Source: Myxococcota bacterium (GTDB lineage: Bacteria > Myxococcota_A > Polyangia > Palsa-1104 > JAEUJZ01). Taken from it: DNA of 64,000 nucleotides. Each line of letters opens with the position of its first letter. Position 1 is the first letter of the stretch. Shown in pieces: positions 5,177 through 35,582 of the stretch. The stretch spans positions 12,420-76,419 of the forward strand of contig JANWXW010000147.1 of the NCBI GenBank assembly GCA_025057315.1. The letters run 5' to 3'. The translations under genes were made by a program, and so were the position numbers. The notes under the pieces are model-generated. The model did no database searches, was not told where the DNA came from, and was given only the letters and a program-made list of their open reading frames with translations.

Positions 5177-5332
5177 CCCCGCAGGCCTGCAGAGCCTCCA
5201 CGGATAGGGTCCGGACCCTCCCCCCCGGGGGACAGCAGCCTGGGGGGAATGGGTGCGCCGGCCCGCCCCGGGGCCTGGATCGGCTGCTCCCCGGGCCTTC
5301 AGAGCCCGCGGCAACGGCCCGATGTCCTGGGC

Positions 5333-6070: not shown

Positions 6071-6125
6071 GAGCAAGACAGCGAGGCAGCGCGCGCACCC
6101 CACGCGCGCACAGGAGGACAGGACC

Positions 6126-6785: not shown

Positions 6786-6821
6786 CGAGGACGCGACAAC
6801 GAGGACGCCAAGGAGGACGCG
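6779..6821 (+). repeat. three imperfect tandem copies of a 12-14-nt unit (GCGATAACGAGGAC / GCGACAACGAGGAC / GCCAAGGAGGAC) spanning a stop codon and an RBS
   Basis: Read directly from the sequence. The last unit provides the AGGAGG for the 6822 gene. Confidence 0.6.
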
Positions 6822-17979: not shown

Positions 17980-17980
17980 G

Positions 17981-18199
17981 CTAAAAGAGCATGTAGATGT
18001 AGCTGGAGATGGCGCTGCTGTTGGCCAGCACGATGAGGCCGCCGATGCTGACCAGCATGAGCACGGTGGGCAGCAGCCACCAGGCCTTGCGCTCCCTGAG
18101 GAAGCCCCACACGTCGGCCAGCAGCGTGCGGTTGCGCAGGGCCCGCAGGCGGGCCTCGCGACCAAGAAAGGAGTCGTGGGTGTTGTGCATGGTGGTCAC
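17981..18199 (-). CDS. DUF5989-like small membrane protein
   Basis: 72 aa, single TM (WWLLPTVLMLVSIGGLIVL). Sits immediately downstream of the carbamoyltransferase, as is typical for this family. Confidence 0.5.
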   Translation of the reverse strand: MTTMHNTHDSFLGREARLRALRNRTLLADVWGFLRERKAWWLLPTVLMLVSIGGLIVLANSSAISSYIYMLF

Positions 18200-18216
18200 T
18201 TACGTCACTTGGTCTT

Positions 18217-19978
18217 TTAGTCTTTGGCGTATGTTTCGCTGTCCCAGATGTGCTGGGGGTTGTCCTCGCGGCGGATGCAGTAGTCGCCCATGATGAGATA
18301 GTCGATGCCGGTGCCCATCATGCAGCGGTAGGCATCCAGGGGGGTGCACACGATGGGCTCACCGCGGATGTTAAACGAGGTGTTGACCAGCATCGGGACG
18401 CCTGTGCGTCGGCCGAAGGCGCGGATGGTATCGTAATAGAGCGGGTTGTTCTCCCGGCGGATGGTCTGCAGGCGGCCCGAGTCGTCCACGTGGCGCACGG
18501 CGGGCAACCGGTCGCGGTGGGCAGGCCGGATGGGGTAGACCATGAGCATGAAGTCACAGGGTGCGGGCAGCGGCGAGTCGCACTCGAAGTAGGTGTCGGC
18601 GTCCTCGGCGCACACGACGGGGGCGAAGGGGCGAAACCGCTCCCGGTGCTTGACCTTTTCGTTCAGGATGTCGCGCATCCGGGGGTTGAGCGGGTTGGCC
18701 AGGATGCTGCGGGCGCCGAGCGCGCGGGGGCCCCACTCCATGCGGCCCTGCATCCAGCCCACCACGTGGTCCTCGGCCACCAGGCGCGCCGTGGTCTCGA
18801 CGATCTCCTCGTCGCTGCGCAGCCGCTGGTAGCGGACGCCGTTCTGGTCCAAAAACGCGCCGATCTCGGCGGAGGAGAAGCTGGGGCCGAGGTAGGGGCT
18901 GCTTAGGGTCCAGTGGCGGGGCCGGCCCAGCAGGGTATGGTAGATGTAGGCCGCCGCGCCGATGCTGGTACCGGCGTCGCTGGCATTGGGCTGGATCCAG
19001 ACCCGGCGGAAGGGGGTCAGGCGGAGGATTTTGCCGTTGAAGACGCTGTTGAGCGCCACGCCACCCGCCATAACCAGGTTGTCGCAGCCGGTTTCGCGGT
19101 GCAGGTGGCACAGCATGCGACAGAGCACGTCCTCGGTAAGGAGCTGCACGGCCGCGGCGATGTCCTGCAGGCGCGGGGTCATGACCGAGTCGGGCGGCGC
19201 CGCTGGTCCGCCGAGCAGGTCACACAGCTTCTGCGACGGCATGCGCTCGGCATAGTGGTAGCAGAAATAGGACATGTCCAGGCGCAGACTGCCGTCCTCG
19301 CGCACCTGGACGACGTCGCGCAGCCGGGCATAGAAGGGGTTGGTGGCCCGGTCGCGGTTGCCATAGGCGCTCAGGCCCATCACCTTGTACTCGGAGTTGT
19401 TGACGCTGAAGCCGAGGTAGGCGGTGATGGTGGAGTAGAGCAGGCCCAGCGAGTGGGGAAAGCGGATGTCTTTGCGCAGGTGAATGCGGGTGCCCTCGCC
19501 GATGCCATAGGAGGCGGTGGTCCATTCGCCCACGCCGTCCACGGTCAGGATGGCAGCGCGCTCGAACGGGCTGACCAGGAAGGCGCTGGCTGCATGGGCC
19601 ATGTGGTGCTCCAGAAACAGCACGCTGCCGCGGTAGCCCAGGGCCTTGCGCAGCGTCCGGCGCAGCCGGATCTTTTCGTTCAGCCAGGACGGCAGCGAGG
19701 AGACAAAGGTCCGGTAGCTGCGCGGAAAGGACTCCAGGTGCTGACACAGCACGCGCTCGAACTTGAGCAGCGGCTTCTCGTAAAAGCCAATGTAGTCCAC
19801 ATCTTGGATGCGCAGGCCCTGGCTCTCTAGACAGTAGCGGATGGCGTGGATGGGGAACGACTGGTCGTGTTTGATGCGGGTAAAGCGCTCCTCTTCGGCA
19901 GCGGCGACGATGACACCGTCGCGCAGCAGGGCTGCTGCTGCGTCGTGGTAGTGGCAAGAGACGCCCAAGATGTTCATG
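18217..19978 (-). CDS. carbamoyltransferase, NodU/CmcH (HypF-like) family
   Basis: Start ATG 19978 (MNILGVSCHYHDAAAALL). Conserved N-terminal ASKHA-like and C-terminal YrdC-like carbamoyltransferase regions. About 587 aa. Confidence 0.85.
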
Positions 19979-19979
19979 G

Positions 19980-20510
19980 CTAGTACTGGCGAAAATAGGC
20001 ATCCAGCGAGCGCGCCTCTAGGTCGAGGTCCTGCCAGAACGTCTCCTTGTCGGGAGCCGGGGCCAGGTCCAGGAAGCGTCGGCGCAGCAGGCGCGCCACC
20101 AGCGCGGTGGGTCCCAGGGCGCCAAAGTAGATGATGGTCAGCAGGATCGCGTTGACGCCTAGGGCCACGTGGCGGCCGAAGGTACGCATGCCGTGCAGGA
20201 GGCTGCGCCAGAGCGGGCCTGCGCCGTCGTCCCGCGGCCGGCCTGGCAGCAGCCGCAGGGCATTGAGCAGCAGCACCACGCCCATCCCGCCCAGGATGTG
20301 GGGGATGCCGACGTGCTCGCGTACCAGCGCCACCTTGCGCGAGAGCATGTGGTGGGTCAGCAGCGCAAACACAAGCAGACCGAGGTGGTAGCCGACCAAC
20401 GCACCCACGCGGCCCGGCGGCAGCCGGTCCCCTGGGGGGCTGGGGGACGGGCTGGACCAGACGGACCGCAGGGGCGGCGGGGTGGCAGCAGGCGCCGTGG
20501 GCAGCCTCAT
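19980..20510 (-). CDS. SxtJ-like small membrane protein (hypothetical)
   Basis: Three predicted TM helices. Position immediately upstream of the carbamoyltransferase matches the SxtJ-like family context. Start uncertain. Confidence 0.4.
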   Translation of the reverse strand: MRLPTAPAATPPPLRSVWSSPSPSPPGDRLPPGRVGALVGYHLGLLVFALLTHHMLSRKVALVREHVGIPHILGGMGVVLLLNALRLLPGRPRDDGAGPLWRSLLHGMRTFGRHVALGVNAILLTIIYFGALGPTALVARLLRRRFLDLAPAPDKETFWQDLDLEARSLDAYFRQY

Positions 20511-20540
20511 GGACGGGTCTCTCCCCCGCTCGGCCAGGGC

Positions 20541-21737
20541 CTAGCCTTCGGCGGCCATGCGGGGTACAGGCTTGCCCAGCTGGATGACGGCAGGTCCTGT
20601 CCACCGCCGTAGGGGGGCCAGACCGGCCGACCTTGCGCAGCGCTCCTGCGCCATTTGGTAGACCCGTTCATGCCGCCAGATGACCTCATCCCATGCAAAG
20701 CGGTCGAGATCAAGTTTGGCCTCCTCGGCCATGCGATGCCGCAGCTCGGCATCGCACAGCAGGCGGACGATGTAGTCGATAAATTCCTCCCAGGTGTCGG
20801 CCAGAAACCCGTGCCGGCCGTGCACCAGCGCATCGCTGACCCCGCCGTGGTTGCGCGCCACGACCGGCAGGCCAACGCAGCGCGCCTCCAGGGTGGCGAT
20901 GCTCAGCGCCTCCTTGATGGTGGGCAGGACAAAGAGCGCAGACCGCGCCAGGATGTGCTTGATCTCCTGCCTGGACAGCAGGCCTGGCAGCTCCAGCAGG
21001 TCCTCAACGCCCAGCCGATGGGCCTCCCGCTCGACCCGTGGCCGCTCGGGGCCGTCTCCCACCAGCGTGAAGCGCGGACAGATGCCGGGGGGCAGACGGC
21101 GCATAATCTCCGGGATGGCGCGGACAAAGTCGGTGGGCCGCTTGCGGCGGGTAAAGCGCATCACGCTGGTGACGCGCAGCTCTGAGGTGGGTGGCCGCTG
21201 CACTCGCCAGGCGTCCAGGTCGATGCCGTTGGGCAGCACGACGATGTCGTCTCGGCGGTAGATGCGGCGCTGTTCCTGCACCACGTACCGGCTGACGCCG
21301 GACAGGACGTCTGGGCGGCCCAGCCAGCCTGACACCGAGTCCAGCAGACGCAGCAAAGTACGCTGGCCGCGCAGCACCGAATGCTCGGTGACCACCGACG
21401 GGATGCCAAGGCGGCGCGCGACGTGGACACCGCCGATGGCCAGGGGCGATAGGCCGGCGTGACAGTGCAGCAGGTCGAAGCGCTCCCGGCGCACGATCTC
21501 CTCCAGCACGTCGAGGGCACGGCGGTTGGCGATGGTTCGCAGCACGGGCAGCAAGGGAACCCGCAGCCGGTGCACGGGGAAGCCATCCTGCCCGGGTGGC
21601 CCCGGCGTGGCGGTGATGACGTGGGCCTCATGGCCGCGCCGGGTGAGCTCACGTGCCAGGTCGCGCATGTGCAGCTCCAAGCCGCCCACCCGGGGCAGGT
21701 ACCAGTCGCTGACCAGAGCTATCTTAAGGGACGGCAC
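20541..21737 (-). CDS. glycosyltransferase family 1 (GT-B, GT4-like)
   Basis: 398 aa. N-terminal GT4 domain (LVSDWYLPRVGG). C-terminal Glycos_transf_1 motif (EALSIATLEARCVGLPVVA, the E-x7-E region). Confidence 0.85.
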   Translation of the reverse strand: MPSLKIALVSDWYLPRVGGLELHMRDLARELTRRGHEAHVITATPGPPGQDGFPVHRLRVPLLPVLRTIANRRALDVLEEIVRRERFDLLHCHAGLSPLAIGGVHVARRLGIPSVVTEHSVLRGQRTLLRLLDSVSGWLGRPDVLSGVSRYVVQEQRRIYRRDDIVVLPNGIDLDAWRVQRPPTSELRVTSVMRFTRRKRPTDFVRAIPEIMRRLPPGICPRFTLVGDGPERPRVEREAHRLGVEDLLELPGLLSRQEIKHILARSALFVLPTIKEALSIATLEARCVGLPVVARNHGGVSDALVHGRHGFLADTWEEFIDYIVRLLCDAELRHRMAEEAKLDLDRFAWDEVIWRHERVYQMAQERCARSAGLAPLRRWTGPAVIQLGKPVPRMAAEG

Positions 21738-21821
21738 GCCGGCACCTGACGCAAGAACCGTTCCTCCCTCCTCGCGGCAGGGGGCCTCGCCGGCTGACAG
21801 TGGGGGTGTCGAGGATCTGAC

Positions 21822-22943
21822 TCAAGAGGCGTGTCGAATATCTGACGCAGGGGCAGGTTGGTCCTCGCCGCGTGGGCTTGACAGATTGGATGAACCACCG
21901 GACCTGAACCTGGCCATGCGCCGTCCGATTGAGAGTAGGGTTTGCGGACGGCGCCAGCTGTCCAGCGATGAGACGCGATGGACACAACCGATGGTGCAGG
22001 TGGGGGCACACTGCTTGGGCGTGTCAAACTCGCGCCGGATGTCCTCGATCGTGTACTCGTCCAGGGGAATGGCGGGGTAGCCGCGCTGCTGGGAGCAGTA
22101 GTGCACCAGGCCGAACTCGCAGATATATAGATAGCGAGCGCCGGCACGGCACTGCCAGTCGTTGGGCTCGCCGCGCACGAGCCTGTGCTGGAACCCATGC
22201 ACCCGGCTGTAGAGGCCCTGGCCGTAGGCCACGGCCTCCCGGTAGATGGCATGCTCCCGCGGGCTGAGCGGCCGGAGCTGGCCCGAACCGTCGTGGATGA
22301 TGCCCACCGAAGTGGTGAAGCCGAGCTCGGCGGCACGGCGGGCAATGATCACCGCGTCCTCCGGCCGGCGGACCCCGGAGCCCAGCACCGTGTTCACGTT
22401 GACGTGGAACTCGGCCAGCTCCGACAGATGTTGCAGCTTGCGGTCGAGCGTGCGCAGGCTCTTTTGGGACGCCTCGTCGGGCTCGACGTTGTCGATGCTG
22501 ATCTGGAGGTGGTCCAACCCCGCTTCGTTCAGGCGCCGGATGCGCTCCGGCCCGAGGAAGAAGCCGTTGGTGATGAGCCCGGCCATCATCCCCCGGGCGC
22601 GGATGTGGGCGATGATGGTATCGAGGTCAGGGTGCATCATGGGCTCGCCCCCGCTCAGGGTGACGATGGAGGTGCCCAGCGCCGCGAGCCGATCGATGCG
22701 CCGGCACACCTCGGCCACGGGAACGGGGTCGGAGACCTTGTCATACTCGTTGCAGTAGCTGCACGACAGGTTGCACCGGCGCATGGGAACGATGTGCGCC
22801 AGGATGGGGTGCGACTTGTGGAGCAGGGCCCACAGAATCAGCCGGGCCTCGCGCAGGGACCGGGTGAGCTTGCGTCTTCCGGGTCGCATCGGGGGTGTCC
22901 TCGCTGCCTGGTATGCGGGTTCAAGCAGGAGCTGTGCCATCAT
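21822..22943 (-). CDS. radical SAM protein with a C-terminal Cys cluster (HpnH-like / SPASM-like)
   Basis: CNLSCSYC (the CxxxCxxC radical-SAM motif) followed by a GGEP motif. C-terminal CAPTCTIGC cluster. Start is either ATG 22943 (23-nt overlap with the downstream gene) or ATG 22889. Confidence 0.8.
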   Translation of the reverse strand: MMAQLLLEPAYQAARTPPMRPGRRKLTRSLREARLILWALLHKSHPILAHIVPMRRCNLSCSYCNEYDKVSDPVPVAEVCRRIDRLAALGTSIVTLSGGEPMMHPDLDTIIAHIRARGMMAGLITNGFFLGPERIRRLNEAGLDHLQISIDNVEPDEASQKSLRTLDRKLQHLSELAEFHVNVNTVLGSGVRRPEDAVIIARRAAELGFTTSVGIIHDGSGQLRPLSPREHAIYREAVAYGQGLYSRVHGFQHRLVRGEPNDWQCRAGARYLYICEFGLVHYCSQQRGYPAIPLDEYTIEDIRREFDTPKQCAPTCTIGCVHRVSSLDSWRRPQTLLSIGRRMARFRSGGSSNLSSPRGEDQPAPASDIRHAS

Positions 22944-23799
22944 GGGCTGGACGGGGGGGGGATCGCACAGCCCGCCACAGCCTGCGGCCGCCCAGGGCCA
23001 GGACCACCAGGCCGCTGGCGGCCGTGGCCAGGACGTAGCTGATGGACCGATCGAGCAGCGCGATGGCCAGTGCGGTTTCGACCGGCACTCCGTAGAGACA
23101 CAGGGTGGCGGTCAGGCTCGCCTCCACCACGCCCAGGCCGCCCATCATCGGCACCGCAGCGCCGGCGGCCGCTGCAAAACACAGCCCGACCGCCTGCGAG
23201 GGCTTCAGCCACACGCCGAAAGCCGCCGCTGCGGCTGCCAGACGGAGGATGTCTGCAGCCCAGACCAGCAGCGAGATGCCCAGGGCCCGCAGCAGGGGCC
23301 CCCGCGGCAGATGCACGCGGGCCAGCTGGGCTCGCAGCCGCTGACGCCAGCCATGCTCCCCAGAGGCCGCACGCAGCAGCGCCAGCGCCGCGACCCCGGC
23401 TGCCAGGACAAGCGCCAGCGGGCCCAGGTGGCCGCGCCGGGCGACATCGGGCAGGGCCGGCAGGGCCAGGAGCAGAAACAGCGGCGCCGGCACCCAGTCG
23501 AGCAGGCGGTCGTAGGCTGCCGACGCGGCGGCTCGTCGCAAGTCCACCCGCGTGCGCAGCTGCAGCACCACGACGCGGCCGATCTCGCTGCCGAGGCGGC
23601 CAGGCGTGACGTTGTTGAGGAAGGTAAAGGCCAGGTTGGCCAGGATCGTCTCGCGCAGCCGCACCGCCTCCTCCAGGCCCAGCAGGAGCGTCTGCCAGCG
23701 ACGCCCACCCAGATAGACCCAGGCGGCATACAGGGCCGCCACCGCGAGCACCAGAGCGGGGTTGGCGCCGAGCAGCGCCTCCACAGAGCGCTGCAGCAT
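22921..23799 (-). CDS. UPF0104 / lysylphosphatidylglycerol-synthase-TM-like (flippase-like, HpnL-like) membrane protein
   Basis: Start ATG 23799 (MLQRSVEALL). 8 predicted TMs. Charged loop RLGSEIGRVV typical of UPF0104. 8 nt downstream of the MMPL gene. Confidence 0.65.
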   Translation of the reverse strand: MLQRSVEALLGANPALVLAVAALYAAWVYLGGRRWQTLLLGLEEAVRLRETILANLAFTFLNNVTPGRLGSEIGRVVVLQLRTRVDLRRAAASAAYDRLLDWVPAPLFLLLALPALPDVARRGHLGPLALVLAAGVAALALLRAASGEHGWRQRLRAQLARVHLPRGPLLRALGISLLVWAADILRLAAAAAAFGVWLKPSQAVGLCFAAAAGAAVPMMGGLGVVEASLTATLCLYGVPVETALAIALLDRSISYVLATAASGLVVLALGGRRLWRAVRSPPRPAHDGTAPA

Positions 23800-23807
23800 G
23801 TGCTGGA

Positions 23808-26294
23808 TCACGGCAGGCGTGCCTGGCGCCGCGCCAGGATCTGCGCCAGGATTGGCAGCACCAGCAGCGCCGCCATCAGGCAGGTCACCTCGCCCAGGTC
23901 CGCCAGCAGGCCAAAGGAGCGCAGCGCCCGGTTGTGCGACAGCAGCAGGGAGCTGTAGCCGATGATGGTCGTCAGCGAGCACAGCGCGACCGCCGAGCCG
24001 GTGTGGGTAATGACGTCCCGGACGCGGTCGCGGCCCTGGCGCAGCCGCGCCCAGATGTTGGCCGCATAGTCGGCGCCGATCCCCAGCGTGATTGGCAACC
24101 CGACGAAGTTCATAAAGTTAAGCTTCAAGCCAATGGCCCCCAGCAGCCCCCCTAGCCAGCACAGGCCCACGCTCAGCGACACCAGGACCGGCAGGGCGCC
24201 GGGCCAGCCGAACGACAGCAGCATCAGCAAGCTCACCCCGACCAGAGCCGCCAGCGTGATGCGCGGGCCGTCCTGGATGATGGTCGAGATCATGCCGGCA
24301 AAGACGGTGGCCGTGCTGGCAGCGACCCAGGTCTTGCCCTCTGCCTCCACCTGGAGCACCTCGGCGATGCGCAGCAGGTCCCGCCCATTCCAGGCATAGA
24401 AGGTAGTCGGGTCGGCGTCGATGCCGATGAGGCGGCCCCGGGTGCCATCGATCTCGGTGAACGCCTCGCGCACAATCTGCGGCAGGTCGTCCACACCGAT
24501 GCGGCGCAGGTAGTCGGGCGGACGGAAGCGATCGACCTCGCGGCGCTCCTCGTCCGTCATCAGGTGCATGTGGCGGTCGATCTTGCGGCGGATGCGGGCC
24601 AGGATCTCCAGCTTCTCGTCCTGCTCGGAGGGCAGCACGGAGTTGAGCGTCCGCACCACGCTGAGCACATGGCGGGCGCCCAGGGCTCGATCCTTGGCCC
24701 GGATCGCCTCGGCGACGACGTCGGCCTGCTCGGGGCGGTCGACCAGCAGCACGCCGTCGTTGCCGATGTGGCCGGCGCCCACCGCCCCCATGCCCATCAT
24801 CTCCATCCGTCCCCACAGGCGCTGCGCCTCGGTCTGCTCGCTGCGCAGGTTCTCGAAGTTCCACTCCAGCGGGTCGGCAGCGTAGCGGACCAGGGGCACA
24901 ATGGCCGCCACCACCAGGGCCAGGCTCGCCAGCCCGAGCCAGCCCGCGTAGCGTTCGGCCAGGCGGCCTACGGCGGCAAAGGGTCGCTCCCACAGGTTCA
25001 TGCGCGGCGTGAAGAGGCCCGGCCACCGCCGCTCGCCCCAGATGATCATGGGTGGCACGAGCAGGAAGGCCATCAGCCACACCAGCAGCATGCCGGCGCC
25101 GCCCACCAGCCCGAACTGGCTGAAGCCGCGGAAGCTGGTTCCCAGCAGGCAGCCATAGGCGATGCTGGCTGCAGCCACTGCCGTGATGGTCGCCAGCAGG
25201 GTGGAAGACATGGCTCGGGCCAGCGATGGCCCGACGGCCAGACCCCGACTGCGCTCCTCCCCGAAGCGCGCCACCAGGATGATCGGCGTGTTGATGCCGT
25301 TCCCCAGGATGATCGAGATGAGGAACGACGTGTTCATGTTCAGGTGCTGGATGGTAAAGCGCGCCAGGACCAGCGCCAACAGCAGCCCCAGCACGGCGGG
25401 TGCGCCCACCACCAGCAGCAGGGCCGGCCGGCGAAAGTAGGAGTAGATGGCCAAAAAGACCAGGGTGCCACACAGCAGGGTGGCCAGGGTGAGGTCGTTG
25501 CGAATCGCCTCGCTGTCATCCAGAACGTGGGCAATGTGGCCGGTGTAGCGGACGGTCAGCTTCGGGTGGAAGGAGGTCGGCCGGAGGCGGCGCACCTCAG
25601 AGCGCACGGCCGCCATGGTCTCGAAGTCGCCGGCGGTGGCCAGGCCATCGCGGCGCTTCCACAGCATGATGCCCAGGTAGTGGAGCCCGTCCTCGCTCGC
25701 CAGGAAGTAGTCCGTTTGCGAGCGCGGCGGCACCTTCTGCTCCAGCCCGCGGCGCAACTCGCTCAGCTCTTGCTCCGGATCGCCTTCCAGATCCACCAGG
25801 AAGGGGGAGGTGCGCCGGGCAATGATCCGGTCCAGCAGCGCCTCGGCGCGCTCCAAATCGGCCCGCTCCGCGTACAGCCACCGCCATCGGGCGGCAAACT
25901 CCGGCCCCTCCGTGTCCGGCCGCCACTGGATCTCGGTGAAGACGCGGGGGATCATCGCCTCCAGGCGGGGACGGAGGGCCTCTGCGAAGCGGCGGTTTGC
26001 CTCCTGGTCTGGACTCTCGATGATCATCACCAGGTTGGTGGCGCTTTTCTGCCGCGGCGTGACCGTACGGATCGCCCGCACAGCGGGGTGGTGCTCGGGG
26101 AGCAACTCGACCAGATCGGTGCGCAGCTCGAGCTGGCTAACCGGCACGAGCGCAGAGAGCGCCAGCAGCCCTAAGGCGCCGAGCACCAGGCTGGTTTTTC
26201 GCTCCGCAAACCGGACGTAGCCGGCAAAGAGGCGATCAAAGAGGCGATCGACGACGCGGTTTGGAACACCGTGCTGGCTGGGAAGACTGGTCAA
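23808..26294 (-). CDS. MMPL/RND-superfamily transporter (HpnN-like lipid exporter)
   Basis: 828 aa. Two 6-TM bundles, each followed by a large periplasmic loop (a 12-TM RND-like fold). MMPL-like conserved TM4/TM10 regions. Confidence 0.8.
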   Translation of the reverse strand: MTSLPSQHGVPNRVVDRLFDRLFAGYVRFAERKTSLVLGALGLLALSALVPVSQLELRTDLVELLPEHHPAVRAIRTVTPRQKSATNLVMIIESPDQEANRRFAEALRPRLEAMIPRVFTEIQWRPDTEGPEFAARWRWLYAERADLERAEALLDRIIARRTSPFLVDLEGDPEQELSELRRGLEQKVPPRSQTDYFLASEDGLHYLGIMLWKRRDGLATAGDFETMAAVRSEVRRLRPTSFHPKLTVRYTGHIAHVLDDSEAIRNDLTLATLLCGTLVFLAIYSYFRRPALLLVVGAPAVLGLLLALVLARFTIQHLNMNTSFLISIILGNGINTPIILVARFGEERSRGLAVGPSLARAMSSTLLATITAVAAASIAYGCLLGTSFRGFSQFGLVGGAGMLLVWLMAFLLVPPMIIWGERRWPGLFTPRMNLWERPFAAVGRLAERYAGWLGLASLALVVAAIVPLVRYAADPLEWNFENLRSEQTEAQRLWGRMEMMGMGAVGAGHIGNDGVLLVDRPEQADVVAEAIRAKDRALGARHVLSVVRTLNSVLPSEQDEKLEILARIRRKIDRHMHLMTDEERREVDRFRPPDYLRRIGVDDLPQIVREAFTEIDGTRGRLIGIDADPTTFYAWNGRDLLRIAEVLQVEAEGKTWVAASTATVFAGMISTIIQDGPRITLAALVGVSLLMLLSFGWPGALPVLVSLSVGLCWLGGLLGAIGLKLNFMNFVGLPITLGIGADYAANIWARLRQGRDRVRDVITHTGSAVALCSLTTIIGYSSLLLSHNRALRSFGLLADLGEVTCLMAALLVLPILAQILARRQARLP

Positions 26295-26531
26295 TGGAAC
26301 ACCTGCGGCCTGGCCCTCTGGACCCCGCCCAGAACAACGGCCGGGCGGCTTGCCCGATCCGGATCAGCTTGCGTGGACAAAGCATATGCATGCCCTTTGC
26401 GGCGTGCAACAAAGGAACAGCCCGAGGCCCTGTCGGACAGGTGTCAATTTTTCACCACCGGAGGTGAAGGTCTGGCACATGGTTGGGCGCAGCACGCTAC
26501 CACGAAGGCCGCTGGGTCGGATACAGTGCAG

Positions 26532-27776
26532 ATGATGATCCCCCCCGGCAAGGGAACCTATCTTCTCTGCATGCGGCTCCTCGGCCCCTCTGCCACCCTC
26601 CCCTGGCTGCTGCTTGTGCTTGGGCAGGTCGCTGGCAGGGTGTGGGCCATGCCTGTGCCAGCGACGCGGACCGTGCTGCCTGCAGACAGGGTGCTGAAGC
26701 TAGCGCCCCTGCTGACCACGGCCGAGTTGGTGCTGCTCGAGTCCGACGAGCGGCGCGCGCTGCGCCAGCTTACCACCCTCAGTTGGGTCGCCGCCCCGCC
26801 CGCCCTGGTGCGCGAGGTGGTGGCCCGCCCTGACCGCTACCCCGAGTTCGTGCGCAACATGACGATTTCCGAGGTGAAGCGGCTTCCCGATGGCAGCCTC
26901 GACCATCGCTACGAGCTGGGCTACTCGATCGCCACCATCGGCGGGATGAGCCGCTTCGTGTTCGACGCCGGGGCGTCGGGCAGCTGGCTGCCAGGCATTG
27001 ACATGTACGATCCGGAGCCCGGCGGCGCGCGCTGGCACCGCTGGGATTTTCTTCCCGCAGGTGGTGGTACGATCATTGTGTTGTCGGGCTACCCGGACGT
27101 CCATCACTCCGGAGAGCTGATCGATCGTCTGCTCAACGCCGTCCCGACCTTGGAGCACGGCCTGGCGCTGATGGGCCAGATGACGCTGCTGCTGGCCATG
27201 AAACATCGGGCCGAGCAGCTGGCCGCGGAACGCAAGCTGGATGTACAGCCCCCGCAGGGGCCAGCCACCGGCTACGAGTTCTTGCTCGCCCACGGCGTGC
27301 TCTCGCTGCTGCGTGGCAAACAGGGACGCCTGAGCGAGATGACCCTCATCGTGCACCTTCCGGCTGCTCCGGCGGCGGTCATGGAGGTTCTGGGGCGGCC
27401 GCAGCTGTGGTCGTCGTTCATTCCCTCCATCACCCGCAGCGTGGACCTGGGCGAGCGGGGCGGGGCGCCGGCAGTGGAGCTGGAGCAGGCCGTGCCGCTG
27501 CTGTCCTTCCGCACCGTTTACGCCCTGCACCGCACCCCGAGCGCGGTGGACATGCTGGGGCTGTCAGGCGACCTGCGCGGGGCGCGCCTGCGGTGGGACG
27601 TCCGACCGATTGGGGGAGGGGGGACCCGGCTGGTGTTGCGCACACGCCAGGAGTTCGATCGGGCCAGCGTGATTCTGCGCCAGCTTTATAAGCTGGAGCC
27701 GCTTTTCGAATACGGCGTCAACATGGGGCTCGGCCTGGTGCTGCTCTGGGGCATTGCCGCCCGGGTGGCCCCCTGA
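26532..27776 (+). CDS. secreted protein with two SRPBCC(START/Bet v1)-like lipid-binding domains (tentative)
   Basis: Start ATG 26532, or the signal-peptide-like MRLLGPSATLPWLLLVLG. Two roughly 150-aa repeats with polyketide_cyc2-like signatures (RYPEFV..., LWSSFIPS...). Confidence 0.4.
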   Translation: MMIPPGKGTYLLCMRLLGPSATLPWLLLVLGQVAGRVWAMPVPATRTVLPADRVLKLAPLLTTAELVLLESDERRALRQLTTLSWVAAPPALVREVVARPDRYPEFVRNMTISEVKRLPDGSLDHRYELGYSIATIGGMSRFVFDAGASGSWLPGIDMYDPEPGGARWHRWDFLPAGGGTIIVLSGYPDVHHSGELIDRLLNAVPTLEHGLALMGQMTLLLAMKHRAEQLAAERKLDVQPPQGPATGYEFLLAHGVLSLLRGKQGRLSEMTLIVHLPAAPAAVMEVLGRPQLWSSFIPSITRSVDLGERGGAPAVELEQAVPLLSFRTVYALHRTPSAVDMLGLSGDLRGARLRWDVRPIGGGGTRLVLRTRQEFDRASVILRQLYKLEPLFEYGVNMGLGLVLLWGIAARVAP

Positions 27777-27813
27777 GGCGCGCCTGCGGGCCCACGCTAG
27801 CATGGGAGCTCGC

Positions 27814-28530
27814 ATGGAGGTCTGCATCACCATCGACGTCGAGCAGGACTGCCCGCCCTACCTTGACAGCTACCGCGGCATCGAGGAGGGCATGCCCCAG
27901 CTGATGGCGCTGCTGCGTGAGGAGGGGGTGCCAGCCACCTTCTTTACAACGGGCGATGTCGCCCGCCGCTATCCTGCGGTGGTGCGCCGCATCGTGGCTG
28001 AAGGGCACGAACTCGGCGCCCATGGCGACACCCACCGCCGGTTCAGCGAGCTGGATGCTGCCCAAGCTCGCGCCGAGCTGGAGGCTGCCAGCGCCACCCT
28101 GCGTGCCTTTGCCCCGGTGGTTTCCTTCCGCGCGCCCAACCTCGACCTACCGGCCTGTGTTCTGCCCCTGTTGCGCCAGCACGGCTACCGCATCGACTCC
28201 TCCCAGGGCCGGCACAAACACGGTCTGTACTTCCGCCGCCCGCGCGTGCACCGAGAGGCAGGGCTGTGGCGCGTGCCGGCGTCCCTGCCACCGAGCGTGC
28301 TGCGGGCACCTGGTCCGCTGCCGAATCTGCTGTGCGCGCTGTGCGAGAGCCCCTTTGTGCCTTTTTACCACCCATGGGACTTTGTCGACCTGCGGGGCGC
28401 GCCGATCCCGCTGGACTGTCGCCTGCGCAGCGGGGAGGCGGCCCTGCGGCACCTGCGCCGCACGATCCGTTGGCTGCGGCGGCGGGGTGCGCGCTTTCTG
28501 CGCCTGGCCGACCTGTCCTTCCCCGATTGA
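27814..28530 (+). CDS. polysaccharide deacetylase (NodB homology, CE4)
   Basis: ITIDVEQD (the TFDD-like Asp motif), HELGAHGDTH (His-His metal site) and a RAPN motif. 238 aa. Confidence 0.8.
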   Translation: MEVCITIDVEQDCPPYLDSYRGIEEGMPQLMALLREEGVPATFFTTGDVARRYPAVVRRIVAEGHELGAHGDTHRRFSELDAAQARAELEAASATLRAFAPVVSFRAPNLDLPACVLPLLRQHGYRIDSSQGRHKHGLYFRRPRVHREAGLWRVPASLPPSVLRAPGPLPNLLCALCESPFVPFYHPWDFVDLRGAPIPLDCRLRSGEAALRHLRRTIRWLRRRGARFLRLADLSFPD

Positions 28531-29665: not shown

Positions 29666-32578
29666 ATGCGGCCAGGTCTGTTTTTCATCGTTCTCGGATG
29701 GGTCCTCGCGATGGTTCCACCGAGGGCAGCGGCGGCCCCCATCGACATCGAAGCGAACCGGGCTAGCGCTCCCCCGCGGAGCGATCAAGGACACGGCATT
29801 TGCACCACGGCCGTCCATTTGAACCAGGACGATCTGCTCACGGGCGTGGAGGTCGCTGAGGCCTACCTGGCACAGTCTGTCGGCATGAACCGCGTGGACG
29901 GCAAGGTAAGCTTCCCCTACGCCACCATCGATTTCCGCAACAGTGCTCCCACGGCGGGGGGGGACTACCCTGACAACCGTCCGTTGCCCTTTACCGCGCT
30001 GCCTGGTACCCCCCAGGTCGGCAACGAACGCAACATCGCCATGCGGGTGCGCGGCTACATCAATATCTATCGTCCGGGCATCTTCACCTTCGCCGTGCTG
30101 GCAGATGATGGCTACCGCCTCCGCATCGGTGGCAAGGACATCCTCAGCTCGGTGGGGTTTGCGTCGCTACGCGACAGCCGACAGGTGCGCTTCGCCGCAC
30201 AGGGCCTGTATCCAATTGAACTAGTTTACTTTCAGAACACAGGTCCGGCGATGTTGGAACTGTCCTATGCCGACCGCGAAGACCTGGAGGTGCAGCACTC
30301 GCCGACGCCGCTCGGCGGGGGGTTCAGTCTGGTCCCCCAGGCTGCACTCTTTTCGGCCGTGGCCGGCCGCAGCGACTGCACCGAGTGCAACGACGACGCC
30401 ACCTGTGGGCCCACCATGGGCCGCTATTGCCGCGATGGCCTCTGCCAGCCCTGCATCGTGCCTGCCCGCTGCGGCCAGAACTGCCAGCCCTGTCCTGCCA
30501 GCCAGCCGGTGTGCAACGGCAGCGCCTGCGTCGAGTGCAGCGCAAGCGACACCAGCGTCTGCGACCGAAAGGGCTTTGTCTGCGAGCTGAACACTTGCCG
30601 TCCGTGCCTGGCCGACTCCGAGTGCGGCAATGGCCGCATCTGTGACATTGCGTTCGGACAGTGCATTCCCCGGCCGAACCTGCGCTATGCCGGCGGCTGC
30701 AGCGTGGCGCCCGGCGGGCAGGAGCCTGCTCTGGTGGTACCGCTGCTGTTGCTCGCCCTCGGCCTGCTGATCGTGGGCGCGCAGCGGCTTCGCTCTCGCT
30801 CCGCGCTGGCTGCGCTGGTGTTGCTGGTGGGGGCGGGCCAGGCCCGTGCGCAGCAGTCGCTCGAGGTGGCCCGGTTCAATGCCCAGACGTTTCGCCCAGC
30901 GATGGGCCCCGGCAACGTGTTTACCGTCGAGGGGACCCTTATGCCGCGCCGGCTTTTTCCCTTCGGTGGTCTCTTCTTTCAGTACGCCCACCACCCGCTG
31001 CGTCTGGTGGTGGAGGGTACCGGCGAAACCTATGCCTACCCCGTCTCGCTGATGTTGACCGCACACCTGATGCCTGGCTTCGGCATCACGCGCTGGTGGT
31101 CGGTGGGCCTCGACCTGCCCGTGGTCATGTACCAAGGCTTTGACGAGCGCACGCCCGCAGCAGACACCAACTTTACCATCCCCGCAGCTGGCGGAGTCGG
31201 CGATCTGCGCCTGATGACCAAGTTCCGCATTCTCAACAACGAGGGCGGCGGCTTCGGCCTGGCGGCGGTGCCTCAGTTTGTCTTTCCCACCGGTGCCGCC
31301 GCATCGCCCAACTCGTTTCGCAGCGAGGACACCGTTGGCATCGAGCCACGCATCGCCGCCGACTACCGCTTTCGCAACGGCATCTTCATTGCGCTGAACC
31401 TTGGCTACTGGCTCCGCACCTACAACCGCAACGTGGACTTCGGCGTGGTCCGCGTGGCCGATCAGATCCGTTATGCATTGGGCATGGGGGCACCCATCCT
31501 GAAGGGATTTGGCGTGGCCGGCGAGATGAGCGGCGCGATCAGCCTCAGCCGTCTGGATGGCGGGCCGCTCTACTCGCCGCTGGAGGGCTTTGCGGGCCTG
31601 CGCTACACGCACTCCTCAGGCCTGGAGGCAAGCGTGGGCGGCGGTGGCGCCTTTGTCTCTGCCGTCGGAATACCGCTGTTTCGCGCTTTCGCCAGCATCG
31701 CCTTCGTGCCCACCGGCAAGCGGCCGGAGCGCAGGGTCGAGCCCCGGCCTGAACTGCAAGACCTGGATCCCGATGGCGATGGCGTACAGGGCGTAGAGGA
31801 CGAGTGCCCCAGCAAGGCCGGGCCGCGTGAAAACCGCGGTTGTCCAGACAAGGACCAGGACCGAGACGGCATCGTGGACCGCCTCGACCGGTGCCCGACG
31901 GAGGCCGGCCCGAGCGAAAACGAGGGCTGCCCGGACACCGATAGCGACCGAGACGGCATTGTGGATCGGCTCGACAAGTGCCCCACCGAAAGCGGTGTGG
32001 CGCAACACGATGGCTGCCCCGAGCTTGACACCGACAAGGACGGTATCCTTGACAAGGACGACCGGTGCCCGGCCCAGCCCGGCGTCGCTGACAACCAGGG
32101 CTGCCCGGACACCGACGAGGACAAGGACACCATTGTGGACCGGCTCGACCGGTGCCCGAAGGAGGCCGGCCCGCGTGAGACGAGTGGCTGCCCCGTGCTC
32201 CAGGTCAGCGACAACCGCGTGAGGCTGGTGCTGCCCATCCGCTTTGCTCCAGGCAAAGACACACCGCAGAAGGAGTCCGACCAGGTGATCATGGCCCTGG
32301 CCCAGCTTATGGCCCAGGACAGCTCGATCAAGAAGCTCCAGATCGAGGTCCCAGCCAGCGGTGACAAGAAGACAGCCAAGAAGCTGGCCGGCAAGCGGGC
32401 CAAGAACCTGCTCGGCTTGCTGGTGGATGCCGAGGTGTCCAAGAAGCGGCTGGCCATCAAGGCGGCCAAGAGGCTGGAGGGCGACGAGATCACCGAGGTC
32501 ACTCTCAACAGGGGCAAGGTCAAGGACAAGAAGGGCAAAAAGGCCAAAGCGGGTAAAAAGGGCAAAAAGGCCAAATAG
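29666..32578 (+). CDS. 970-aa ORF. N-terminal part: signal peptide, PA14-like domain, Cys-rich repeats and a MYXO-CTERM-like GC...hydrophobic...RLRSR segment. It continues in frame into an OmpA-family outer-membrane protein (second signal peptide, beta-barrel, 5x thrombospondin type-3 Ca-binding repeats, divergent OmpA-like C-domain, poly-Lys tail).
   Basis: PA14-like GYINIYRPGIFTFAVLADDGYRLRIGG. CxxC-rich repeats at aa 238-333. AGGCSVAPGG...LLLALGLLIVGAQRLRSR at aa 342-378. Then ALAALVLLVGAGQARAQQ. DxDxDGxxDxxDxCP repeated five times. Tail KDKKGKKAKAGKKGKKAK. Confidence 0.7.
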   Translation: MRPGLFFIVLGWVLAMVPPRAAAAPIDIEANRASAPPRSDQGHGICTTAVHLNQDDLLTGVEVAEAYLAQSVGMNRVDGKVSFPYATIDFRNSAPTAGGDYPDNRPLPFTALPGTPQVGNERNIAMRVRGYINIYRPGIFTFAVLADDGYRLRIGGKDILSSVGFASLRDSRQVRFAAQGLYPIELVYFQNTGPAMLELSYADREDLEVQHSPTPLGGGFSLVPQAALFSAVAGRSDCTECNDDATCGPTMGRYCRDGLCQPCIVPARCGQNCQPCPASQPVCNGSACVECSASDTSVCDRKGFVCELNTCRPCLADSECGNGRICDIAFGQCIPRPNLRYAGGCSVAPGGQEPALVVPLLLLALGLLIVGAQRLRSRSALAALVLLVGAGQARAQQSLEVARFNAQTFRPAMGPGNVFTVEGTLMPRRLFPFGGLFFQYAHHPLRLVVEGTGETYAYPVSLMLTAHLMPGFGITRWWSVGLDLPVVMYQGFDERTPAADTNFTIPAAGGVGDLRLMTKFRILNNEGGGFGLAAVPQFVFPTGAAASPNSFRSEDTVGIEPRIAADYRFRNGIFIALNLGYWLRTYNRNVDFGVVRVADQIRYALGMGAPILKGFGVAGEMSGAISLSRLDGGPLYSPLEGFAGLRYTHSSGLEASVGGGGAFVSAVGIPLFRAFASIAFVPTGKRPERRVEPRPELQDLDPDGDGVQGVEDECPSKAGPRENRGCPDKDQDRDGIVDRLDRCPTEAGPSENEGCPDTDSDRDGIVDRLDKCPTESGVAQHDGCPELDTDKDGILDKDDRCPAQPGVADNQGCPDTDEDKDTIVDRLDRCPKEAGPRETSGCPVLQVSDNRVRLVLPIRFAPGKDTPQKESDQVIMALAQLMAQDSSIKKLQIEVPASGDKKTAKKLAGKRAKNLLGLLVDAEVSKKRLAIKAAKRLEGDEITEVTLNRGKVKDKKGKKAKAGKKGKKAK

Positions 32579-32644
32579 CCAATAGATTCAGAGGGAGTGC
32601 GCGCGGCAGCGGATTATAGTAGGGGCCCTCCCTAGCTCCGGAGG

Positions 32645-33610
32645 TTGCTCATGCGCGCACCCCCTCTCTTGCTCGCCTTGCTGGCGTCCTGCTCTCTTTC
32701 CTCCCTCGACGATGAATCCCCTCCATCCGGCCAGGACCGCACGGAGGGCACCATCCGGCTGGAGGCCGAGCCGATCACCTTGCAGCCAGGGCAGGAGGTC
32801 ACCCGCTGCATCACGGCGCGGCTGCCGACCCACGCGCCGGTGGATGTGGTGCGCATCCAAGCGCGCCAGTCAGGCACCCATCACGTCGTGTTCTACCGAG
32901 AGGAGCAGGACGTCCCCCCCAGCCCGACGCGCGACTGCCGGCCCCTGGACATCCTCGGGGAAGGTGTTCGCATCGAGCGCGTGCCCCTATTTATCGGCGA
33001 GACGCCGGAGGCCGAGCTGACCATGCCCCCAGGCGTTGCCTACCGCCTGCGCCCCGGGGCCGCCTACACCATTGAGGGCCACTACATGAATGCCACGCCT
33101 GCGCCGCTGACCACAAGCGCGGTGATCTTGCTTCACACCGCTCCTGCTGGCGCCCAAGTCGTCGAGGCTGATATGTTGTTTTATGCTTCCGTAAGCGCGC
33201 TCAACAAGGTCTACGATGGCCGCCAGCGAGGGTTGCCGCCCGGTGTCACAACCACCATCAGCCCACCCGGCTTCCGCGCGCCGCGTGAGGGGATCAAGCT
33301 CTTCGCGCTGACCTCCCACCAGCACCGAACGGGCATAGATTTTGTCATCAGCAAATCCCGTGGGCGGGACGACCCGGGGCAGCTGCTGTACCGCAACCAG
33401 GACTGGGCCCATCCTCCGCTGCTGCGCTTTCCCGATGAGGCGCTGATCACGTTTGACAGCAGCAAGGGAGAGGGCCTGCGCTGGGAGTGCACCTACCACA
33501 ACACAAACGACTTTTACCTGACCTTTGGGCAGTCAGCGGTACGCAACGAGATGTGCATCCTGTGGGGGTACTACTTCCCAGGACGCGGCTTCGACCTCCA
33601 CTTCGAATAA
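32645..33610 (+). CDS. lipoprotein with a copper type II ascorbate-dependent monooxygenase (PHM/DBH)-like fold
   Basis: Signal peptide plus LASC lipobox. HH (GTHHVV), H (GHYMNA), HxH (SHQHRTG) and M (NEMC), with inter-ligand spacings of 62/76/75 aa, close to the PHM CuH (H107/H108/H172) and CuM (H242/H244/M314) sites. Confidence 0.5.
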   Translation: MLMRAPPLLLALLASCSLSSLDDESPPSGQDRTEGTIRLEAEPITLQPGQEVTRCITARLPTHAPVDVVRIQARQSGTHHVVFYREEQDVPPSPTRDCRPLDILGEGVRIERVPLFIGETPEAELTMPPGVAYRLRPGAAYTIEGHYMNATPAPLTTSAVILLHTAPAGAQVVEADMLFYASVSALNKVYDGRQRGLPPGVTTTISPPGFRAPREGIKLFALTSHQHRTGIDFVISKSRGRDDPGQLLYRNQDWAHPPLLRFPDEALITFDSSKGEGLRWECTYHNTNDFYLTFGQSAVRNEMCILWGYYFPGRGFDLHFE

Positions 33611-33630: not shown

Positions 33631-34341
33631 TTAGCGGTAGCGAAGCAAGGCCACCCGACCGGCCAGCTCCGCGATGTCAGAAGGCAGCTGGCCGCCGCCC
33701 TCCAGGTGCTGGATCAGCAGCTGGAGCGAGGTGCGGGCGAAGGCACAGAGGATATCGCCCGCGCTGACGCCAGGGGCTGAGGTGGGCGACTGGAGGGGCG
33801 CCGGGGCAGCTGCAGCGGGAGAGGGCGGGGCCGGGGGAGGCGGGGCTGGTTTTGGCTCGGCCTCGATCTGCGCCGGTAACGCGCCGCCATCCTTGGCGAT
33901 CTGTGCGTCGATGACCTGCAGGACATCCTGGGCATGGGTGTAGACGTTCGCCCGGGGGAAGATGTGGCAGATGGTGCCCTTCTGGTTCAGGATGAACGTA
34001 GAGCGCATCTGACCGCGCTCGCTCCACGTCCCCCACTGCGTGGCGACCGCATGGTCTTGGTCGGAGCAGAGATCGAAGGGGATGTTGTTGTCCTTGACAA
34101 ATTGCGCCAGCGCCGACACCGAATCCGGCGAGATGCCGACGATACCGACGCGGCGCTTCTGGAACTCGCCGTACAGGTCCCGGAACCCGTTCACCTGCCG
34201 GGTACAGCCCGGGCTGCCCGCCACCAGGAAGAAAAACACGACCACGTAGTCGTTCTTCGCTTGCAGCTGGGACAGGCGGGTCATCCCGTGGTCGTGGCAC
34301 GAGAGCACAAAATCAGGGCCGTGGGTGCCAACTTCCAGCAT
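33631..34341 (-). CDS. peroxiredoxin (Bcp/AhpC-TSA family) with an 80-aa C-terminal extension
   Basis: Thioredoxin-fold Prx core with peroxidatic Cys in PGCT (AGSPGCTRQ). Followed by a Pro/Ala-rich linker and an extra C-terminal module of about 50 aa. Confidence 0.7.
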   Translation of the reverse strand: MLEVGTHGPDFVLSCHDHGMTRLSQLQAKNDYVVVFFFLVAGSPGCTRQVNGFRDLYGEFQKRRVGIVGISPDSVSALAQFVKDNNIPFDLCSDQDHAVATQWGTWSERGQMRSTFILNQKGTICHIFPRANVYTHAQDVLQVIDAQIAKDGGALPAQIEAEPKPAPPPPAPPSPAAAAPAPLQSPTSAPGVSAGDILCAFARTSLQLLIQHLEGGGQLPSDIAELAGRVALLRYR

Positions 34342-34382: not shown

Positions 34383-34883
34383 TCATACCCTAGGGGAGCG
34401 TCTTGCATCCAGGACCTTCCGACGGGAGGGCGGGGGCGGAATGCGCCATGGCCGGGGCGGCTTCGGCCAGACCACCAAGGGCTCCAGCACCCGCACCAGC
34501 ACCGGCTGAAGACCGTTCAGGCGCAGACGGTTGGCCACGGGGGGCAGCAGATCGAGGATGCCGCGCCAGGTGCCCGGGTCACCAGCCCGGCGCTTGATCA
34601 GCCAGCGTCCCTGATGCAGGGCCCCATAGGGGCCGCGATCCACGACGGTGCAGGTGGCGCCTCTGCCGGTGGTGCCGCTGACAATCAGGAGCTGCGTTCC
34701 ACAGGGCAGCCAACGGTGGGCACAACCCTGGGCGACGGCACTCAGGAAGGCTGGTCTGGCCATGTGGCGTCGGCACATCAACGTATAGCCAGCCAGCCTG
34801 TCGCCGGGTTCGCCAAAGCGGGAGGCCATCCCGAACTGGACGGTCGCGAGCAGTCCCGACAGACATGTGAGTGTACCGACCAT
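34383..34883 (-). CDS. RlpA-like double-psi beta-barrel (DPBB) protein
   Basis: YTLMCRRHMARPA...LPCGTQLLIVSGTTGRGATCTVVDRGPYGA...GRWLIKRRAGD matches the RlpA/expansin-like DPBB core. Confidence 0.6.
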   Translation of the reverse strand: MVGTLTCLSGLLATVQFGMASRFGEPGDRLAGYTLMCRRHMARPAFLSAVAQGCAHRWLPCGTQLLIVSGTTGRGATCTVVDRGPYGALHQGRWLIKRRAGDPGTWRGILDLLPPVANRLRLNGLQPVLVRVLEPLVVWPKPPRPWRIPPPPSRRKVLDARRSPRV

Positions 34884-35000: not shown

Positions 35001-35582
35001 ATGAACGCAGACGCACAGCACGAGGCCCTGTGTCGGCGCTGCGGCATTTCCTGCCACTTCGCCGTGCGGGTGAACGGTCTGGCGGTGGTGGTGGACGAGC
35101 TGCACTGTCGCTTTTTGGCTCGCGCCGCGGATGGGAGGTTCCACTGTACCGTCTACGAGCGGCGCTTCGAGGTCGCCCCGTGGTGCCACAGCGCGGCCCA
35201 GGCAGCCTCTCAGGGGCTGCTGGCCCAGGACTGTCCCTACACCCACGGCATGCGGGGCTACCGGGGCAAGGTGCGCCTTGGCGCGAGCCTGCTGCGGCAG
35301 GTGCTGCCGGCCATCTGCGCCGAGGTGGTACGAGTTGGTGTTCCCATTGGCGCAGACCCGGAGCACGCGCTGGCCTTGGTGGCGCAGCTGGGCGGCGATT
35401 GGGACTACTGCATCAGCGAGGACGGCACGCGCTACCTATTCTTCCGACGGGACGCGGCGCCCTCTCCCCGTGCCGCGGCGCCAGCGTCGGGTCAGCTCGG
35501 GCAGGCCGGAGCGCCCGCGGATGCCCTGCCTGACGCGTCCCCGAGTCCGAGCCAGAGCAAGGCTCCTGGGGCGCCGAAATGA
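35001..35582 (+). CDS. hypothetical Cys-rich (putative metal-binding) protein
   Basis: RBS gaaaggtcATG. N-terminal CRRCGISCHF...HC...HC Cys/His cluster. Ala/Pro-rich C-terminal tail. Confidence 0.5.
   Translation: MNADAQHEALCRRCGISCHFAVRVNGLAVVVDELHCRFLARAADGRFHCTVYERRFEVAPWCHSAAQAASQGLLAQDCPYTHGMRGYRGKVRLGASLLRQVLPAICAEVVRVGVPIGADPEHALALVAQLGGDWDYCISEDGTRYLFFRRDAAPSPRAAAPASGQLGQAGAPADALPDASPSPSQSKAPGAPK

Follow-up and report, generated by a model that had tools for sequence, protein, structure and literature searches.

In animals, PHM (peptidylglycine alpha-hydroxylating monooxygenase) amidates peptide hormones and DBH makes noradrenaline, and the literature treats both as eukaryotic enzymes. 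Does a gene in a bacterial chromosome encode a further member of their superfamily? The gene in question lies on the forward strand of a 64,000-nucleotide stretch of DNA from a Myxococcota bacterium (assembly GCA_025057315.1, contig JANWXW010000147.1; the whole stretch is called the window below), in an open reading frame (ORF) at 32645..33610. A preliminary description of this ORF, made without database searches, had noticed a lipoprotein signal followed by His and Met residues arranged much like the copper ligands of PHM, and had proposed a PHM/DBH-type copper monooxygenase. Our analysis supports that identity at the level of homology. The encoded protein (the copper protein below) is probably genuinely homologous to PHM and DBH, which are noncoupled binuclear copper monooxygenases, and it keeps all of their catalytic residues; copper binding and catalysis are predicted. 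We draw this conclusion because a Pfam match, a family profile and a search with the predicted fold agree, with the copper ligands and two disulfides in register.

Predicted copper ligands, fold and lipoprotein signal

The gene and the parts of its product are as follows. Residue numbers for the copper protein are throughout those of the 321-amino-acid (aa) ORF that starts at TTG.

32640..32644, + strand: Shine-Dalgarno sequence GGAGG, read from the sequence, 6 nt before the ATG at 32651
32651..33610, + strand: coding sequence of the PHM/DBH-like lipoprotein, 319 aa plus stop, 100% identical to an NCBI protein
32651..32692, + strand: type II (lipoprotein) signal peptide, MRAPPLLLALLAS followed by the lipid-bearing C; lipobox L-A-S-C read from the sequence
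32747..33139, + strand: N-terminal beta-sandwich, the domain of CuH (the electron-transfer copper), about residues 35-165, from the profile alignment and pLDDT >90
32807-09 and 32936-38, + strand: predicted disulfide C55-C98 of the N-domain, aligned with PHM C81/C126
32879-81, 32882-84 and 33080-82, + strand: CuH-site ligands H79, H80 and H146, aligned with PHM H107/H108/H172
33167..33607, + strand: C-terminal beta-sandwich, the domain of CuM (the O2-binding, catalytic copper), about residues 175-321, with PF03712 over residues 213-312
33317-19, 33323-25 and 33551-53, + strand: CuM-site ligands H225, H227 and M303, aligned with DBH H412/H414/M487 and PHM H242/H244/M314
33488-90 and 33554-56, + strand: predicted disulfide C282-C304 of the C-domain, aligned with PHM C293/C315

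The preliminary description had proposed searches with both Pfam models of the enzyme. The C-terminal model, Cu2_monoox_C (PF03712), matched residues 213-312 with E = 2e-8 and 34.3 bits, above its curated cut-off of 23; a scan of the copper protein against NCBIfam returned no family. Human DBH (4ZEL) was matched weakly (E = 0.008) in a single-sequence phmmer search of the PDB sequences, in an alignment that placed H225/H227 on DBH H412/H414 and M303-C304 on M487-C488. An alignment of 25 homologues with identities down to 28% (A1) was the basis of both a family profile and an AlphaFold2 model. The profile matched rat PHM with E = 4e-11 in a single stretch, from residue 14 to residue 282 of the PHM chain and through both domains. 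It placed HH79-80 on PHM H107/H108, H146 on H172, H225/H227 on H242/H244 and E302-M303-C304 on E313-M314-C315, and it also brought C55/C98 onto C81/C126 and C282 onto C293. The roles of the PHM ligands are taken from a review (PMC12164859). All six residues singled out in the preliminary description are real and M303 was numbered correctly, but the remaining positions were off by 1-9 residues: the residues given as HH 88-89, H150 and H226/H228 are HH79-80, H146 and H225/H227. The spacings from HH79-80 to H146, to H225-H227 and to M303 are 66/79/76 aa, and not 62/76/75 as first given; those of PHM are 64/70/70 rather than 65/70/70. The two kept disulfides fit with an oxidising, extracytoplasmic location.

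The AlphaFold2 model comprises two beta-sandwiches and is confident (mean predicted local distance difference test, pLDDT, 90.6; predicted template-modelling score, pTM, 0.84). The 30 best Foldseek matches in the PDB were all PHM or DBH (E from 4e-14 to 6e-11, probability 1.0, template-modelling (TM) scores 0.54-0.69), which bears out the structural comparison with PHM that had been suggested. The best E, 4e-14, was to PHM, alignments to PHM extended over about 300-323 columns, and sequence identity to PHM/DBH in these matches was 15-20%. The next fold class, made up of the PM2 and PRD1 capsids, DUF2961 and PNGase F, was found only at about 1e-5. The best TM-scores were those to closed conformers, namely 4ZEL chain A (DBH, 0.69) and 6ALA (PHM H108A-citrate, 0.65), compared to 0.54-0.63 for open PHM forms. 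We take this better fit to be a property of the prediction and no evidence on mechanism. It may be a modelling artefact, or it may hint that the bacterial enzyme rests closed.

The ORF at 32645..33610 (+) comes from a mechanical six-frame list, which takes it from TTG to give 321 aa. The DNA around the start reads GGAGG-TTGCTC-ATG. As GGAGG abuts the TTG at 32645 with zero spacer and lies 6 nt from the ATG at 32651, translation most likely begins at the ATG and gives a protein of 319 aa. An NCBI protein from a Myxococcota metagenome-assembled genome (MAG), P0001, is 100% identical, has the same 319 aa and is annotated "hypothetical protein". The codon bias of the gene is coding-like, with a GC content of 0.81 at third codon positions (GC3) against 0.49 at second positions (GC2), in a window of 65-70% GC. 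No paralogue of the copper protein was found by tblastn across the window.

The lipoprotein signal LLLALLASCS seen in the preliminary description is present as ORF residues 8-17. Its lipobox Cys is residue 16 (codon 32690-32692), and MRAPPLLLALLAS-C conforms to the lipobox pattern [LVI][ASTVI][GAS]-C. The copper protein is predicted to be a Sec-exported, lipid-anchored lipoprotein of the cell envelope, and its lipidation is likewise a prediction. The Ser at position +2 after the lipid-bearing Cys, together with the recurrence of genes for outer-membrane barrels next to family members (see below), suggests an anchor in the outer membrane.

The bacterial family and its relation to PHM and DBH

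How widely is this protein distributed? A profile search of 1.84 billion cluster representatives (metagenome proteins in clusters of 50% identity) gave 6,288 matches at E <= 1e-3, 2,876 at <= 1e-10 and 562 at <= 1e-30. We aligned 135 of the best matches, with 23-46% identity to the query (A2). The six ligands are 95-100% conserved in this alignment: H146 is kept in all 135 sequences, H79 and H227 in 133 each, H80 in 132, H225 in 131 and M303 in 129. Similarly, all six are invariant in A1, where C55, C98, C282 and C304 are nearly so. The column of the lipobox Cys holds Cys in 125 of the 135 relatives, 106 have a lipobox-like motif, and the residue at +2 is mostly Gly or Ser (Ser in the window protein). 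PF03712 matches 128 of the relatives and PF01082, the N-terminal Pfam model, matches five; other domains are almost absent, and DOMON was found in none of the 135. From these sequences, the copper protein belongs to a large, coherent family of lipoproteins of about 300-400 aa in which both copper sites are under strong selection.

The preliminary description had called such enzymes rare in bacteria. This does not hold for the family as a whole, which occupies hundreds of 50%-identity metagenome clusters (562 at E <= 1e-30), but it does describe the close subfamily, which is almost confined to Myxococcota MAGs and annotated "hypothetical". Scanning one genome per GTDB species with a pattern gave 41 loci. 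Each lies in a MAG, nearly always of Myxococcota (Polyangia, "Myxococcales"), and one is from an Armatimonas MAG. Relatives already carry a PF03712 tag from public pipelines, and in one JGI record a relative has been given a name. The family is thus already implicit in the databases, and routine Pfam annotation half-makes the homology assignment. Several MAGs have two copies of the PHM-like gene: in four of them (L018/L019, L016/L020, L013/L021 and L024/L029) these are two unlinked paralogues with 41-51% identity to the query, and a further locus, L053, holds a tandem pair (4295-5497 and 6001-6840).

Among the characterised enzymes, PHM (the catalytic core of PAM; PDB 1PHM, 1OPM, 1SDW) gave both the best profile match, over its full length (E = 4e-11), and the best Foldseek E (4e-14). 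It has the same size of about 300 aa and the same two-domain beta-sandwich, with the CuH motif His-His...His and the CuM motif His-x-His...Met-Cys in register. The disulfides equivalent to C81-C126 and C293-C315 are kept, while three of PHM's five are absent in the copper protein. The substrate site is different. PHM holds its glycine-extended substrate via Arg240, Tyr318 and Asn316, and its Gln170 is on a proposed electron path (PMC12164859). In the copper protein R240/N316/Y318 are replaced by T223/I305/W307, and Q170 by E144. These replacements are the rule in the family: across the 135 relatives the position of R240 holds T in 103, that of Y318 holds W in 84 and that of N316 holds F or I in 108. 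The preliminary description had thought of a peptide or lipid-linked substrate; because of these replacements, the substrate would not be a glycine-extended peptide. PHM is also fused to PAL and a transmembrane segment, whereas the copper protein is anchored by an N-terminal lipid, and PAL was found neither in the copper protein nor in its window neighbours nor in the 25 commonest neighbour families of 42 homologous loci. With the peptidylglycine binders replaced and PAL missing from these places, we rejected assignment as a peptide-amidating enzyme (PHM proper, EC 1.14.17.3).

DBH, tyramine beta-monooxygenase (TBM) and MOXD1 (PDB 4ZEL) share the same core, with H412/H414/M487 of DBH on H225/H227/M303, and chain A of 4ZEL, the closed conformer, gave the highest TM-score of any structure (0.69). 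However, DBH has about 600 aa compared to 319 for the copper protein, which is without the DOMON domain, the dimerisation domain and the glycosylation of DBH. We saw no evidence in the copper protein for a phenylethylamine-binding pocket. A DOMON domain defines the DBH/TBM/MOXD1 group, and we rejected membership of this subfamily on the absence of a DOMON match from the 319-aa protein and from all 135 relatives.

The remaining structural relatives are PNGase F, DUF2961/GH172 and the double-jelly-roll capsid proteins (Pfam clan CL0612 and its structural relatives), which have a common double beta-sandwich topology and are discussed in PMC8812541. PHM-family proteins are widespread in eukaryotes, unlike the bacterial PNGase F (PMC8812541). 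This group has no copper ligands, TM-scores of only 0.25-0.35, Foldseek E values of about 1e-5 and no match at the sequence level, and it was rejected as the family of the copper protein on these grounds. On the sequence comparisons, then, the copper protein is placed in the PHM/DBH superfamily but outside both characterised subfamilies.

Gene neighbourhood and TraB-like genes

Can the neighbouring genes indicate what the copper protein acts on? Two genes flank it directly in the window:

29666..32578, + strand: TraA-like plus TraB-like ORF of 970 aa, upstream on the same strand, 72 nt before the ATG of the copper-protein gene
33631..34341, - strand: convergent peroxiredoxin of Bcp/PrxQ type, AhpC/TSA over residues 4-126 of 236, with a Pro/Ala-rich C-terminal extension of about 90 aa

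The upstream ORF recalls the TraA/TraB system of outer-membrane exchange in Myxococcus xanthus. Its TraA-like part has a PA14 domain resembling the N-terminal domain of TraA, a Myxo Cys-rich repeat and an end like a sorting tag (GGCS, a hydrophobic segment and RLRSR), and its TraB-like part has an outer-membrane barrel, TSP3 repeats and a degenerate OmpA-like end. In contrast to M. xanthus traA/traB, both parts are joined in one frame, and the best NCBIfam matches score far under their cut-offs (TraB, E = 1e-96, 324 bits, cut-off 700; TraA, E = 5e-22, 78 bits, cut-off 750). M. xanthus encodes TraA and TraB in two distinct genes with a 4-nt overlap (PMC3325183). The junction at about 30700-30830 is in frame, with no stop codon. 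The TraB-like part has a signal-peptide-like segment of its own at an internal GTG at 30773 (M-GAQRLRSRSALAALVLLVGAGQARA, followed by QQ). The 970-aa ORF could be a true fusion, could have an internal start, or could have lost a stop codon in the assembly of the MAG. Its product is a possible envelope partner of the copper protein, or the two genes may simply be co-transcribed.

A layout like that of traAB, in which the gene for a lipid-anchored protein directly adjoins a TraB-like gene, recurs at several other loci. Genes for a barrel with TSP3 and OmpA parts adjoin the copper-protein gene in convergent orientation at L026, and downstream on the same strand at L039, L042, L043, L044 and L051. 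Including the window, where the TraB-like gene is upstream, this adjacency is found in three separate clades of the family tree and in three arrangements. Within the L039-L044 group, the gene for the copper lipoprotein takes the place of traA in traAB. All seven TraB-like genes in the roughly 0.6 Mb of fetched loci directly adjoin a copper-protein gene, and none lies elsewhere there. Given that about 22% of the called genes directly flank a copper-protein gene, the rough chance probability of this is ~0.01, an estimate that hinges on the number of TraB-like paralogues per myxobacterial genome and covers three independent lineages only. The adjacency is suggestive of a link to the copper protein, but is not proof of one.

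Beyond this we found little regularity. Genes at the loci of the GTDB scan were called by a GC3 criterion, and neighbours were clustered by all-against-all BLAST. A Pfam scan of 123 flanking proteins from 42 homologous loci returned 117 different families and no common partner, and nine contig look-ups with precomputed Pfam tags agreed that no partner is conserved. With no conserved operon among the loci, we rejected a prediction of the substrate from operon context. The wider window is ordinary chromosome, with a serA-like dehydrogenase gene, hrcA-grpE-dnaK-dnaJ and a metallophosphoesterase gene.

The convergent peroxiredoxin with an unusual extension, already pointed out in the preliminary description, is present. 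It has the peroxidatic SPGC motif and no resolving Cys five residues on; its tail of about 90 aa consists of a Pro/Ala-rich linker and then a C-terminal segment of about 45 aa that matches no family. Its translation has no signal peptide, and AhpC/TSA is outside the 25 commonest neighbour families of the 42 homologous loci, so that a pairing with the copper protein is not conserved; we rejected it as a partner on both counts. Further on, a YcgN-family cysteine-cluster protein is encoded at 35001-35582 (+), with an N-terminal part of about 95 aa and an Ala/Pro/Ser-rich C-terminal extension of about 100 aa. Between this gene and that of the peroxiredoxin, a 166-aa ORF at 34383-34883 (-) has no coding codon bias and no family match and is unlikely to be a gene, so that about 660 bp there contain no called gene.

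Upstream, the run from 16813 to 28530 encodes a GDSL-like lipase, a NodU/CmcH-type carbamoyltransferase, a radical SAM protein, an MMPL/RND transporter, an SRPBCC (polyketide-cyclase-like) protein and a polysaccharide deacetylase. These are genes of lipid- or glycan-modification type, and together they may direct the biosynthesis of an envelope glycolipid. Beside PHM-like genes elsewhere, we found no homologue of this run. At two related loci (L008 395-2957 and L010 274-3014) a pterin-4a-carbinolamine dehydratase gene and then a TonB-dependent receptor gene stand directly upstream of the PHM-like gene. Both receptors are heme/hemoglobin-receptor-like, with scores below the cut-offs. At L010, a convergent CusA/CzcA-CzcB-OEP heavy-metal efflux operon also overlaps the 3' end of the PHM-like gene. 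Copper uptake via TonB-dependent receptors was rejected as a general explanation, as the receptors are of heme/hemoglobin-like type and occur at only two loci.

Mechanism, rival explanations and significance

What would such a protein do? The three-His site H79/H80/H146 of the N-domain would be the equivalent of CuH, and the His-x-His...Met site H225/H227/M303 of the C-domain that of CuM. By analogy with the established chemistry of the family, electrons would reach CuH singly from an external reductant, O2 would bind at reduced CuM, and a copper-oxygen species would take a hydrogen atom from a substrate C-H beside CuM, leading to hydroxylation of that carbon. To our knowledge, bacteria generally do not make ascorbate, which makes ascorbate an unlikely reductant here; the reductant is probably a different one.

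Several observations weigh against reading the copper protein as a hydroxylating monooxygenase. The copper sites were assigned from sequence alignment. As no characterised member has a substrate pocket like this one, to predict hydroxylation of a defined substrate is to extrapolate. Of the two Pfam models, PF01082 gave no direct match to the copper protein at E <= 10, although the A1 profile aligns through the N-domain of PHM and a few relatives do match; the N-domain is, judging by these alignments, too diverged for the model. Across the GTDB loci and the nine contigs, no cytochrome, copper chaperone, DOMON/b561 or thioredoxin-like donor recurs beside family genes, and no substrate-pathway gene is conserved next to them. 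Finally, no characterisation of a bacterial PHM/DBH homologue turned up in a full-text literature search, which is not proof of absence.

Could the protein handle copper without catalysis? A PHM-like scaffold on a lipoprotein might serve only for the binding, buffering or transfer of envelope copper, for instance in concert with metal transporters. At L010 the gene converges on, and slightly overlaps, that of a heavy-metal RND pump of the CusA/CzcA family accompanied by CzcB-like and OEP partners, a TonB-dependent receptor is directly upstream at two loci, and no enzyme-pathway context is conserved. Yet a metal-transport context is seen at just one or two of about 40 loci, the TonB receptors are of heme/hemoglobin rather than copper type and under their cut-offs, and the other RND neighbour is of multidrug type. 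Nor would copper handling need the strict retention of the His3 and His2Met sites and of E302-M303-C304 across 23-46% identity, and we regard it as unlikely. We give a similarly small chance to a copper redox enzyme that shares the fold but carries out other chemistry, such as an oxidase or peroxygenase that uses or makes H2O2, or an enzyme that cross-links or cleaves an envelope polymer by oxidation. The replacement of the substrate-binding residues of PHM would fit this, as would the adjacent peroxiredoxin in the window, an AhpC/Redoxin gene about 2 kb off in L052 and L053, and a model closest to the closed conformers 4zel_A (TM 0.69) and 6ala (0.65), whose coppers approach each other. However, the window peroxiredoxin is without a signal peptide and so cytoplasmic, its family is not among the commonest neighbours, and two occurrences in about 45 loci are close to chance level for a common family. 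The closeness to closed conformers may merely reflect the compacting of domains by AlphaFold, and every characterised member of the superfamily that we know of is a hydroxylase.

That the His/Met pattern is coincidental, or that the protein is an inactive relic or pseudo-enzyme, is very improbable. The missing PF01082 match and the low identity to PHM/DBH (just 15-20%) are what could be said for it. Against it, three independent methods (Pfam, Foldseek and the A1 profile) gave significant matches, six ligands and two disulfides are in register and under strong purifying selection family-wide, and the codon bias is that of a normal coding gene (GC3 0.81 vs GC2 0.49). Chance resemblance is effectively excluded. 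We thus prefer homology to PHM and DBH with predicted copper-dependent catalysis.

A more specific version of the homology reading has, in our view, only a slim chance of being right. The copper protein would then represent an ascorbate-independent branch of PHM/DBH, anchored in the outer membrane, that works with barrel proteins (TraB-like OmpA/TSP3 proteins and TonB-dependent receptors) and oxidises a lipid, glycan or protein of the surface or envelope. A role in outer-membrane exchange or kin recognition would then be conceivable in myxobacteria, with the enzyme either as shared outer-membrane cargo or as a modifier of the surface recognised by TraA. The support for this reading is the genomic adjacency of TraB-like genes only.

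What does the assignment add? It is a well-supported assignment of homology and offers no new mechanism. What appears to be new is a bacterial, lipid-anchored, minimal two-domain form of the enzyme, one that differs in its substrate pocket and probably in its reductant. It is a solid lead for copper-enzyme biochemistry, though not surprising in kind. The mechanism of PHM and DBH is disputed, both as to open vs closed conformers and as to the role of ascorbate (PMC12164859), and a bacterial homologue this compact and free of glycosylation would offer the debate a model that is easy to express. It could also serve as a new scaffold for copper-dependent C-H hydroxylation. Hundreds of clusters would gain an annotation from the characterisation of a single member, and the bacterial family bears on the origin of the neuropeptide and catecholamine enzymes of animals.

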